Virus record (IMG/VR): IMGVR_UViG_2585427765_000010
Source: a virus
Lineage: Duplodnaviria > Heunggongvirae > Uroviricota > Caudoviricetes
DNA length: 5,220 nt
Strand: one strand, 5' to 3'
Shown here one piece after another: positions 1 through 5,220 of this stretch. Each line of letters starts with the position of its first letter. Position 1 is the stretch's first letter. Made by a program: the position numbers and the translations under genes. The notes beneath the pieces are model-generated. The model saw only the letters and a list, made by a program, of their open reading frames with translations. It searched no databases and was not told the DNA's origin.

Positions 1-346
1 TCCTCAAAAGCAGGTGCTGGTTCATTCTGATCAAGGCAGTCAGTACACAAGCTATGAGTGGCAGTCGTTCCTGAAATCACACGGGCTGGAGGGCAGTATG
101 AGCCGTCGCGGTAACTGTCATGACAACGCAGTCGCAGAAAGTTTTTTCCAGTTACTGAAACGTGAACGGATAAAGAAAAAGATCTACGGAACGCGAGAAG
201 AAGCTCGCGGTGATATTTTTGATTACATCGAAATGTTTTATAACAGTAAGCGTCGGCATGGTTCGAGTGATCATATGCCACCAACTGAATACGAAAAACA
301 ATATTATCAGCGGCTCGGAAGTGTCTAGATTATCTGTGGCGATTCA
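1..346 (+). mobile_element. Right-hand end of an IS3-family insertion sequence (left part lies outside the window). The outer boundary is approximate; a candidate terminus is the ...GATTCA at 341-346, consistent with the TG...CA ends typical of the IS3 family.
   Basis: Contains the C-terminal part of an rve-type transposase ORF ending at 328. The sequence after the stop, read inward from 346 (TGAATCGCCACAGATAATCTAGACAC), resembles IS3-family terminal inverted repeats in style. The boundary is inferred, not matched to a known IS. Confidence 0.5.
2..328 (+). CDS. IS3-family transposase OrfB (integrase catalytic core, rve/DDE), C-terminal fragment; 5' end lies outside the window.
   Basis: The frame is open from position 2 (the ORF track starts at the first Met, 14). 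The translation contains the hallmark motifs VHSDQGSQYTS and GNCHDNAVAESFF (carrying the third catalytic acidic residue) and ends in a PPTEYEKQYYQRLG-type tail, typical of IS3-family OrfB. Stop codon TAG at 326-328. It does not match my recollection of IS3, IS2 or IS629 OrfB C-termini, so the specific IS is not assigned. Confidence 0.85.
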   Translation, partial: PQKQVLVHSDQGSQYTSYEWQSFLKSHGLEGSMSRRGNCHDNAVAESFFQLLKRERIKKKIYGTREEARGDIFDYIEMFYNSKRRHGSSDHMPPTEYEKQYYQRLGSV

Positions 347-2075
347 CGCATCGAAAATATCCACTAAATGTATTGCTATTAAGCGGGTCTGATGATGAAC
401 GTCCTGCTGTTTTTATATCAATAGGACATGTCAGGTTGCCGTAACCTTCCATTGCGGATGTGTCTATTATGACAGGGTAGTATTTGCCATCCACTGCACC
501 ACCAGGTGCATTAATGGTCATCGCTTTTGTTAACCCACCCTCAGGGATTTGCAAATTAGTTTTGGCGTCATCAAGGTTATTTGCGCCAGTGCCACCATGA
601 GAAACATCAAGTGGTATCCATTTTTTTTGTGTGTCGCTGTAACACCCCCATGTTGATCCGGTTAAACCCAGGCGCATGGATTTATCATGGTTATATAACC
701 ATGTTTCGCTATTCCATTGGTCAAGACGGTCCACTTCATTTTTGCGAGCGTGGCGTGTCCATTGCGGGCCTGTTGTCGGACTCCAGCGATAGGTATAAAG
801 CGAGCGAGTAGTCCATCCCTGAAATACACCTGTATACGCTGGAGTTCCATCTACCTGACTAATAAACCCCGTAAGACTGCTTTCACCGGATGCAATAGAC
901 GGGAAACCTGTTGCATCAGCCATGATGCGCATAAAGCCAATATAACCTGATGGATTTCCTGAGATGTCAGAGCAATCACGCGGTGATGATCCCAAACCGA
1001 TGTTAGTACCAACAATACCCTGGGCCTGGTTGCGATAATTAAGTGCGTCCGCCGCAGATTTCGCCGCGTTTGTTTCACTGGATTTAGCATTAGTTTCGCT
1101 GGCTTTAGCGTTTGTTTCGCTGCTCTTTGCTGCTGCCTCGCTATTTTTCGCGTTGGTTTCTGATTTTTTGGCTGCTGTCGCGGAGTTTGCCGATGCAGTT
1201 TGTGAGTCTGCTGCCGCCTGTGCGCTGTTATCCGCATTCGTCTCAGACGTTTTTGCGGCCTTCGCGGAATTTCCTGCCGCCGTTGCCGAGGAAGCTGCAC
1301 TACTGGCACTTGATGATGCGTTCGTTTCTGATGATTTCGCTACCTCTTTTGAGGCCGCCGCATCCCGGGCTGAGGTGGCAGCTTCTGACGCTTTCGTGGT
1401 CGCGGTGGATGCAGAAGTGGCTGCTGATTGTTGTGATGCTGCAGCATTCGTTTCTGACGTTTTCGCCGCACCGGCACTGGTGGCTGCCGCGCTTTTTGAG
1501 GACTCTGCTGCGGCAGCACTTTTTAATGCTTCAGTGGCCTTTGTTGATGCCGTTCCTGCGCTGGAAGACGCTGACTGAGCCGACGACGCGGCCTGTCCGG
1601 CTGACGTGCTGGCTGCGCGTGCTGAGCCTGCAGCATCAGTCGCATGGGTTGCCGCCTCACGGGCTGATGTGCTGGCATCGCTGGCTGACTTCTTCGCGGC
1701 TGCCGTGTCCTGTGCCACTGCGGACGCGTTACGCGCCACCTCTTCCACCATCAGTTCAAAACGGCGCAGCGCCTCCGGACGGGCATCATCCTCCGTCATG
1801 GCACCGAGAAAATCATTCAGCGTACCGGGTTGAGAATCTTCATACACGGTGATGGTCCCGGCATGTGACGGCGGGAATCCCTCCACCAACAGAATAACGC
1901 TGTACTGACCGTGCTCAACGTCCATGCTGTAACGCCCGGCTTCATCCGGATTTTCTGAGGCCAGCGTGTTCACCACCACCGTGGTGCTGTTACGTTTTGC
2001 TTTCAGCTGGATTGTGCAGTTCTGTACCGGTTTACCTGCACCGTCTTTCAGTACACCTGAAATCTTTACTGCCAT
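330..2075 (-). CDS. stf: Side tail fibre protein, Stf-like. N-terminal ~110 aa lambda Stf-like, central Ala/Ser/Thr-rich SETNA-type repeats, divergent C-terminal region; probably 3'-truncated by the IS insertion.
   Basis: The ORF track gives 330..2081 beginning at a GTG. The in-frame ATG at 2073-2075 gives MAVKISGVLKDG..., which matches the lambda Stf N-terminus as I recall it, so I place the start at 2075. A weak SD-like GGGGTG sits 5 nt upstream. Stop TAA at 330-332 falls inside the presumed IS terminal sequence. Confidence 0.85.
   Translation of the reverse strand: MAVKISGVLKDGAGKPVQNCTIQLKAKRNSTTVVVNTLASENPDEAGRYSMDVEHGQYSVILLVEGFPPSHAGTITVYEDSQPGTLNDFLGAMTEDDARPEALRRFELMVEEVARNASAVAQDTAAAKKSASDASTSAREAATHATDAAGSARAASTSAGQAASSAQSASSSAGTASTKATEALKSAAAAESSKSAAATSAGAAKTSETNAAASQQSAATSASTATTKASEAATSARDAAASKEVAKSSETNASSSASSAASSATAAGNSAKAAKTSETNADNSAQAAADSQTASANSATAAKKSETNAKNSEAAAKSSETNAKASETNAKSSETNAAKSAADALNYRNQAQGIVGTNIGLGSSPRDCSDISGNPSGYIGFMRIMADATGFPSIASGESSLTGFISQVDGTPAYTGVFQGWTTRSLYTYRWSPTTGPQWTRHARKNEVDRLDQWNSETWLYNHDKSMRLGLTGSTWGCYSDTQKKWIPLDVSHGGTGANNLDDAKTNLQIPEGGLTKAMTINAPGGAVDGKYYPVIIDTSAMEGYGNLTCPIDIKTAGRSSSDPLNSNTFSGYFRCVNRHR
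1055..1715 (-). repeat. Low-complexity coding repeat region inside stf (Ala/Ser/Thr-rich, repeated K-S/A-SETNA heptads), including near-perfect 21-bp tandem units at about 1066-1130.
   Basis: Protein shows ...AKTSETNA...KKSETNAKNSEAAAKSSETNAKASETNAKSSETNAAKS... . On the plus strand the DNA reads gcgtttgtttcactggattta / gcattagtttcgctggcttta / gcgtttgtttcgctgctcttt. Confidence 0.7.
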
Positions 2076-2084
2076 ATTCACCCC

Positions 2085-2112
2085 ACAAAAAAGCCCGCCT
2101 GAACCGGCGGGC
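2085..2112 (-). terminator. Rho-independent terminator downstream of lom, upstream of stf.
   Basis: On the minus strand: GCCCGCC-GGTTCA-GGCGGGC, a 7-bp GC-rich stem (plus strand 2093-2099 and 2106-2112) followed by TTTTTTGTGGGG (plus-strand A-run 2085-2092). Located 27 nt after the lom stop. Confidence 0.7.
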
Positions 2113-2139
2113 TGTCATAACACTGTGTTACCTGGCTAA

Positions 2140-2739
2140 TCAGAACTTATAACCGACACCCACGATGAACCCGTCAGTGCGCCAGTTGCCACTGCCGGAG
2201 CCTTCATAAGCAATATCAACGGCCACGGATTCGGTCGGGTTAAACTGCACGCCAGCTCCCCACGCCAGAGAGGTGTTACTGTGGCGAGCGTCATCACTTC
2301 CGGTCAGCACGTCGTGCGTTTTTCCCTTGTTGTCAGTTACGCGGAGATAATCCCCGGAAAAAGTCGACACACGGCTGTAAGCCACGCCTGCCATCGCATA
2401 CGCGCTGAACCATTCATTCACGCGTACAGACGGCCCCGCCATCACGCTGAACCAGCGGTTACGCACGGAATCTTCATGCCAGCGGGTATCGCTGTAACGG
2501 GTAAGCTGGCGATTCTTGTCTCCTGCATAGCTGAACGACGTCACCATCCCCAGTGTGTCCGTAAACTCATAACGGTATTTCACGTTAATCCCGTTCAGAT
2601 CATCACTGCCGGGAACGTTCGTCCGGGCATGAAGATACCCCGCGCTCAGCGTGGACTGATGTTCAGACGCCCATACAGGCGCACCGGATACGGCCAGACA
2701 AATGGCTGCGGACAAAATGGCGGCATAAAGTTTACGCAT
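2140..2739 (-). CDS. lom: Lom outer membrane protein (Ail/Lom/OmpX/PagC family beta-barrel), lambda lom homologue.
   Basis: 199-aa ORF with an N-terminal signal peptide ([24 protein letters not shown]|SEHQ) and C-terminal ...[10 protein letters not shown] (terminal aromatic typical of OMP beta-barrels). Near full-length match to lambda Lom as recalled. SD GAGAGG (plus-strand 2745-2750) 5 nt upstream of the ATG at 2737-2739. Stop TGA at 2140-2142. Confidence 0.95.

Positions 2740-2805: not shown

Positions 2806-5220
<2,415 letters not shown>

Follow-up and report, generated by a model that had tools for sequence, protein, structure and literature searches.

Probable interruption of the side tail fiber gene of a lambda-like Escherichia coli prophage by an IS3-family insertion sequence

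The 5,220-nucleotide stretch of DNA analyzed in this study (hereafter referred to as the window) carries J, lom, and stf on its minus strand, in the gene order of the lambda type (open reading frame [ORF] list and Pfam searches; Table 1). The same order is found in Escherichia coli E203449, where gpJ is encoded by 3,399 nt (L001 8806 to 12204; RefSeq annotation). Here, L001 denotes the E203449 locus, in which a window position equals the L001 position minus 6,000, and L002 denotes the corresponding locus of strain A35, in which stf is uninterrupted. The start of the window belongs to an insertion sequence (IS), and its transposase gene and stf converge. Base 329 alone separates the TAG of the transposase (326 to 328, plus strand) from the TAA of stf (332 to 330, minus strand), exactly as described in the first-pass annotation of this DNA; this 1-bp spacing of the two stops carries no significance of its own. 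An Rfam scan of the window gave no match.

Table 1. Features of the window, with positions counted from its first base
Feature	Position	Strand	Basis or remark
Right-hand 346 bp of the 1,229-bp IS3-family IS (ISEhe3-like)	1..346	+	Window begins within the element
Transposase orfB, 3' part (DDE/rve core, C-terminal end)	2..328	+	Pfam rve, rve_2, and rve_3; TAG at 326-328
IS right terminal inverted repeat	314..346	.	Ends ...GTGGCGATTCA-3'
IS-derived tail of the Stf ORF	330..346	-	2 bases of the Val codon, Asn-Arg-His-Arg, TAA
Truncated stf	330..2075	-	581 aa counted from the ATG at 2075 (576 native residues, then 5 templated by the IS)
Target-site duplication CGC, right copy, 3 bp	347..349	.	Empty-site and junction sequences
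lom (Ail/Lom outer-membrane protein)	2140..2739	-	Pfam Ail_Lom, E = 5e-119; RefSeq agrees
J, tail tip gene, 3' two-thirds	2806..5220	-	ORF list; window end cuts J

The stf ORF comprises 583 aa when read from a GTG start and 581 aa when read from the ATG at 2075, and it ends at the TAA at 332 to 330. Its N terminus contains the phage_tail_N domain (PF08400, 'prophage tail fibre N-terminal'; E = 4.7e-71) at residues 1 to 134 counted from the ATG (i.e., Pfam coordinates 3 to 136 on the 583-aa GTG-start ORF), and a solved structure ('Tail fiber protein', 9e7m) matches its first 94 aa (E = 4e-51). Pfam places no domain in the window ORF after phage_tail_N, and NCBIfam gave no model for the truncated Stf. 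An intact allele from strain AH04 encodes 1,200 aa, of which residues 1 to 576 align to the window ORF at 96% identity. The homology ends at residue 576, where AH04 reads ...FRC/GGWSD and the window reads ...FRC/VNRHR followed by a stop.

The first-pass annotation had assigned the element next to stf to the IS3 family, and the full-length copy in E203449 bears this out. Its orfB scored 363.7 bits against the NCBIfam model NF033516 ('IS3 family transposase'; cut-off, 160 bits), and RefSeq labels the gene as an IS3 family transposase and notes a programmed frameshift. In this copy, frames 1 and 3 hold orfA and orfB, respectively (i.e., a -1 arrangement), which overlap at 249 to 339; an A7G slippery site (AAAAAAAG) lies at nt 303, a position outside the window. 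The element has TG...CA ends (TGAATCGCCAC...GTGGCGATTCA) and imperfect 33-nt terminal repeats; the inverted-repeat pair at L001 5118 to 5150 and 6314 to 6346 is 73% complementary, with 11 of the outermost 11 nt identical. All of the IS3-family characters examined are present: rve domains, the -1 orfA/orfB arrangement, TG...CA repeats, a 3-bp duplication, and a length of 1,229 bp. The element occurs at about 10 places in E203449.

The description of ISEhe3 goes back to pPATH of Pantoea agglomerans; its ISfinder reference is AF327445. It is a member of the IS51 group of the IS3 family, with a duplication of 3 to 4 bp and the TG ends of the group (PMC10425158), and two copies of it were reported on plasmid pT5282-Ct2 (Cheng et al. 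2019, PMC6872532). The only two IS3-family genes of pT5282-Ct2 sit in elements that align with our IS gaplessly from end to end (89.8% identity over positions 1 to 1229). The element of the window thus resembles ISEhe3 in its length of 1,229 bp, its two ORFs with a -1 frameshift, its TG...CA ends, and its 3-bp duplication, while it differs from the pT5282-Ct2 copies at about 10% of its nucleotides. By the ISfinder convention, two copies represent the same IS at roughly 95% nucleotide identity or more. Since the observed identity to the pT5282-Ct2 copies is below this level, we rejected ISEhe3 itself as the identity of the element and provisionally regard it, by comparison with those copies, as ISEhe3-like (i.e., as a distinct related IS rather than an isoform). 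A search of the literature for an IS3-family element of 1,229 bp gave no result, and PGAP and PLSDB give only the label 'IS3 family transposase'.

The exact terminus of the element was fixed by comparison with uninterrupted stf alleles and with independent full-length IS copies. Megablast of window positions 1 to 2100 against 5,426 complete E. coli genomes covered the whole query in a single genome, namely, that of E203449 (NZ_CM128603.1), in which L001 6001 to 11220 corresponds to the window with 8 mismatches in 5,220 positions (99.85% identity). Seventy-six other E. coli genomes matched this query solely from position 347 or 366 onward, and the gene under these matches is 3.6 kb long and annotated as a 'prophage tail fiber N-terminal domain and S74 family endopeptidase-containing protein'. 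The match to the uninterrupted stf alleles begins at window position 347, and where the IS occurs at other E. coli sites, its match to the window ceases at 346 to 348. Full 1,229-bp copies on Klebsiella plasmids (99.9 to 100% identical) have the same first and last base. The allele homology, the plasmid copies, and the arm of the inverted repeat therefore agree on a right terminus at window position 346 (...GGCGATTCA), not upstream of position 326, a placement that would have left all stf codons outside the IS.

Alignment of L001 with the A35 locus gave three collinear blocks (L001 1349 to 2518, 3828 to 5117, and 6349 to 8691), which meet in L002 at 2714 to 2718 and at 4003. The second and third blocks abut at A35 position 4003, which is the IS insertion site, and the full IS occupies the 1,229 bp of L001 5118 to 6346. 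The empty site of A35 reads ...ccaccgc/atcgaaaat, and the left junction of E203449 reads ...ccaccgc/TGAATCGCCACGG... (the IS begins with TGAATCG). The right junction in the window reads ...GTGGCGATTCA/CGC/ATCGAAAAT (the IS ends with GATTCA). When the right flank of the window is paired with the left flank of E203449, CGC stands on both sides of the element. The right copy of the duplication is CAC in E203449 and in contig JAATCY010000075.1, owing to a synonymous G>A change at 348, and CGC in the window. The first-pass annotation had directed attention to the other end of the element; in E203449, that end shows a duplication of 3 bp and, beyond it, the remaining part of stf. It should be noted on the other side, against a simple insertion, that this geometry is taken from E203449, where 8 of the 5,220 positions differ from the window and the duplication itself is imperfect (CGC/CAC).

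With the terminus at 346, the hybrid end of the Stf ORF can be read codon by codon. The Cys codon (350 to 348) is native and lies partly within the target duplication. The Val codon of residue 577 (347 to 345) is a hybrid of a native G and the TG of the IS. The codons for Asn (344 to 342), Arg (341 to 339), His (338 to 336), and Arg (335 to 333) and the stop (332 to 330), which read AAT CGC CAC AGA TAA, are entirely IS sequence. Of the six terminal residues CVNRHR that the first-pass annotation had attributed to the IS, VNRHR can accordingly be retained (with a hybrid Val), and the Cys belongs to stf. The reading of stf enters the right inverted repeat for 17 nt and ends there at the TAA. Read inward, the IS terminus halts translation in every frame, namely, after 0 codons at offset 0, 6 at offset 1, and 4 at offset 2; an early, seemingly 'fortuitous' stop is thus what one would expect of any gene entering it in this orientation.

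The insertion lies at codon 577 of 1,200 (i.e., at 48% of stf), in the middle of the gene and not at its 3' end, where it had originally been placed. The proposal that the IS truncated stf and supplied its stop is in agreement with the intact alleles, which continue for 624 residues past the site; we found no intact homolog ending naturally at the same residue, the AH04 protein likewise running on for a further 624 residues. Judged by its sequence, the stf of the window is a truncated pseudogene of the lambda-type side tail fiber family. This explains the annotation of stf here as a 581-aa ORF or as a pseudogene, as well as the breaks of short-read contigs at this point.

On the basis of these results, we consider it very probable that a 1,229-bp IS3-family element (IS51 group, ISEhe3-like) transposed into codon 577 of stf in a lambda-like E. 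coli prophage, creating a 3-bp target duplication (CGC) and truncating Stf. Translation of stf would then run into the right repeat of the IS and end at the TAA. The predicted product would retain the N-terminal domain for tail attachment, the shaft rich in Ala, Ser, and Thr, and a portion of a conserved middle module, and it would lack the distal 624 residues, including the presumed receptor-binding part and the S74 domain needed for trimerization. The event is an ordinary IS-mediated pseudogenization of an accessory prophage gene, a well-understood form of prophage decay, and RefSeq already annotates it in this way.

In E203449, the distal part of stf persists as DNA on the far side of the IS. 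Codons 577 to 1004 follow immediately, and a second IS3-family element, codons 1005 to 1200, and a tfa remnant come after them. The second element (1,310 bp; GTAG duplication) interrupts stf at about codon 1004, 1.3 kb from the first IS, and matches the Rfam family ALIL (frameshift pseudoknot) at 120 bits, the sole Rfam match of the scan. It is an element of the IS629/IS3411 type with ALIL; i.e., it belongs to another IS3 subgroup, lies outside the window, and is uninvolved in the junction. In silico removal of both ISs and of one copy of each duplication from E203449 yields an open 1,200-aa ORF, which indicates that the insertions are the sole disruptions within the stf coding sequence of that strain. 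The suggestion that the distal tip of Stf is lost consequently stands for the protein and fails for the DNA, since E203449 retains the tip, interrupted again by the second IS.

The window does not reach the left end of the IS, and the nearest draft contig is likewise broken within the element; we infer that the genome of the window probably shares the left junction of E203449. An IS recombination or an adjacent deletion could instead have removed or moved the distal part of stf in that genome, leaving the tip absent from its DNA. The unseen left end, the multicopy nature of the IS, and the substrate that the second IS3-family element 1.3 kb away in E203449 provides would all accommodate such a rearrangement, and yet E203449, which is 99.85% identical and has the same junction, contains a simple collinear insertion. 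We therefore regard a rearrangement as improbable. A rearrangement and a simple insertion would have an identical effect on the Stf protein.

The restored 1,200-aa ORF contains a Peptidase_S74 domain ('chaperone of endosialidase') at residues 1057 to 1108, followed by a C-terminal coiled-coil segment. It is established for endosialidases and for T5 pb1 that their trimers need the S74 chaperone domain in order to fold. Since the truncated Stf loses 52% of the protein together with this intramolecular chaperone domain, it is presumably nonfunctional, and the prophage would almost certainly be unable to make a working side fiber. In searches against solved structures, the distal half gave one weak match (long tail fiber distal subunit 6f45; E = 7.6e-5), and the middle module (residues 346 to 797) gave chance-level matches only (E of at least 0.19). 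The cut may fall in the region termed 'Gp12-like RBD1' of a T-shaped fiber (PMC11990801).

The N-terminal attachment domain and the shaft remain intact, and in silico removal of the IS restores the ORF exactly. These features leave some room for a 581-aa Stf that is still useful, either as a stub fiber on the tail tip or through precise IS excision acting as a reversible host-range switch. Against this usefulness, the S74 chaperone domain and the distal half are missing, the cut falls within a conserved module, and E203449 would need two independent excisions to regain the gene. Precise excision of IS3-family elements is, moreover, rare. Continued usefulness of the truncated protein is therefore very unlikely in our estimation. 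We give an equally slight chance to the view that the insertion is reversible or selected, with IS traffic serving as an on/off control of the side fiber or with loss of Stf being favored in the lysogen; this view draws on the perfect 1,200-aa ORF obtained by excision and on the fact that two different IS3-family elements have entered stf within a single lineage. If it were correct, such control would bear on adsorption or host range in a prophage that is otherwise almost complete.

Residues 477 to 699, which surround the cut, are contiguous in 195 phage records, including the mEp460 side tail fiber, fibers of T5-like phages, and the lateral tail fiber of FritzHoffmann. The protein of FritzHoffmann, a plaque-forming phage, is 99.6% identical at the junction and, along residues 318 to 1173 of the reconstituted Stf, 85% identical. 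Because the module is contiguous in these phages, the cut lies inside a conserved module of working fibers. The ORF is open for 581 to 583 codons with a proper stop, as a natural short Stf variant abutting the IS, with no coding sequence interrupted, would also be. Uninterrupted stf alleles that are 97 to 99% identical to the window in DNA nevertheless run on past the site for 624 codons more, the 195 phage records are likewise unbroken there, and the inverted repeat of the IS supplies the final 4.7 codons together with the stop. The empty-site comparison refutes a naturally short gene, to which we assign next to no probability.

Three separate assemblies contain the junction: that of the window, the complete chromosome of E203449, and contig JAATCY010000075.1. 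The window and the nearest draft do resemble short-read contigs of about 5.2 kb that are broken inside a multicopy IS, of which E203449 has its 10 or so copies, as a misjoining of a repeat-collapsed IS to a prophage contig might produce, but the occurrence of the identical junction in a complete chromosome and an independent draft, with the IS ending precisely at its terminus and with the 3-bp duplication that an insertion should leave, argues that it is not an assembly chimera and makes an artifact extremely improbable. The shared IS junction marks a small E. coli lineage, represented by 1 of 5,426 complete genomes and at least two drafts.

In E203449, the prophage adjoins an icd fragment (i.e., an e14-type site) and has an almost complete set of lambda-like head, tail, lysis, and replication genes, with one small tail gene annotated as frameshifted. 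A scan for promoters and terminators around the junction gave 3 promoter matches, compared with 2.1 expected; as this is a chance level, there is no case for an outward promoter borne by the IS. The finding matters little beyond annotation, and it also illustrates how an IS3-type terminus closes incoming frames within a few codons.

A close parallel is lambda PaPa (orf401/orf314), in which stf, downstream of J and lom, is likewise truncated after its N-terminal part and J is intact. According to what Hendrix and Duda reportedly described in 1992, stf of lambda PaPa is truncated relative to that of Ur-lambda, with loss of the side fibers and not necessarily of infectivity. The two cases differ in cause, a 1-bp deletion (frameshift) in lambda PaPa and an IS insertion here. 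They also differ in fiber assembly, since Stf of the window type has a C-terminal S74 chaperone domain, whereas the lambda type depends on a separate Tfa. Lambda PaPa without side fibers still plates via J, with altered adsorption and O-antigen behavior (PMC11990801). Loss of Stf alone thus does not mean a dead phage, since lambda PaPa infects without side fibers; if the prophage described here is inducible, its virions should lack side fibers and adsorb by J alone, like those of lambda PaPa. The C-terminal S74 chaperone domain is a feature shared with the L-shaped/lateral fibers of T5-like phages (T5 pb1). FritzHoffmann (Bas20, Nonagvirus) displays the uninterrupted distal module in a plaque-forming phage, and its N-terminal attachment domain is different (only 35% identity over the first 110 aa), as expected of mosaic fibers carried by different tails.

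The stf gene, which encodes the side tail fibre, is interrupted a second time in E. coli E203449 (NZ_CM128603.1), where another, distinct IS3-family element breaks it near codon ~1004. This element contains an ALIL pseudoknot (Rfam, 120 bits) and its target duplication is GTAG; thus, this single fibre gene has received two independent IS hits. The pseudogene fragment annotated by RefSeq/PGAP covers only 984 nt (positions 7092 to 8075 of the E203449 locus, L001; window positions plus 6,000), versus 1,746 nt for the truncated stf ORF (window 330 to 2075), and ~760 nt of open stf frame, as far as the IS, carries no RefSeq/PGAP annotation in E203449.

The "empty-site" stf alleles nearest to the window are those of strains A35 (L002) and A3024 (L003) (99.1% identity; locus positions 2127 to 5728). 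Both are themselves annotated as frameshifted, and the tail genes are gone from the A35/A3024 prophage, in which a head decoration gene directly adjoins lom. Thus, there are several independent routes by which the stf type of the window decays. For comparison, the intact Stf (1,200 aa) was taken from strain AH04, not from A35 or A3024.

The window differs from E203449 at 8 positions, and the identical 8 distinguish it from JAATCY010000075.1, a draft contig with the same IS-stf junction. Since the differing positions coincide, these two sequences are, on sequence comparison, closer to one another than either is to the window. One difference (G/A at window 348; synonymous) lies within the right copy of the target-site duplication, while the other seven are grouped in 112 bp of gene J (window 3793 to 3904), a pattern resembling a small patch of recombination or gene conversion.

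The interval from the lom stop (2140) to the stf start (2075) contains a strong terminator-like hairpin (see the table below). Given this predicted hairpin, stf expression would rely on an antiterminated late transcript reading through it. The shaft of Stf includes a tandem repeat (21 nt × 2.4; window 1072 to 1122; TRF). The three long ORFs called over the shaft were rejected as genes and are regarded as by-products of its repetitive composition.

Features of the stf region in the window and of the E203449 locus
Feature	Position	Strand	Details
Terminator-like hairpin, strong	window 2092-2113	-	AGCCCGCCGG-ttcagg-CGGGCT, then TTTTT
Ala/Ser/Thr-rich repetitive shaft	window ~1040-1670		stf residues ~135-345; "SETNAK"-type repeats
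Long ORF called antisense over stf shaft	window 1112-1852	+	ORF list of window
Long ORF called antisense over stf shaft	window 1153-1578	+	ORF list of window
Long ORF called antisense over stf shaft	window 851-1309	-	ORF list of window
Second IS3-family element	L001 2518-3827 (outside window)		1,310 bp; IS629/IS3411-like

The host prophage of E203449, read in NZ_CM128603.1 2822000-2871000 (L005), is close to complete, and its cargo includes iss and an ompC-like porin gene. A frameshift is annotated in its gene at the position of lambda M, which is flanked by L and the tape measure gene, and an IS21-family element (IstB helper annotated as ISSso4-like) lies just past the tfa remnant. The prophage adjoins an icd fragment, i.e., an e14-type attachment site.
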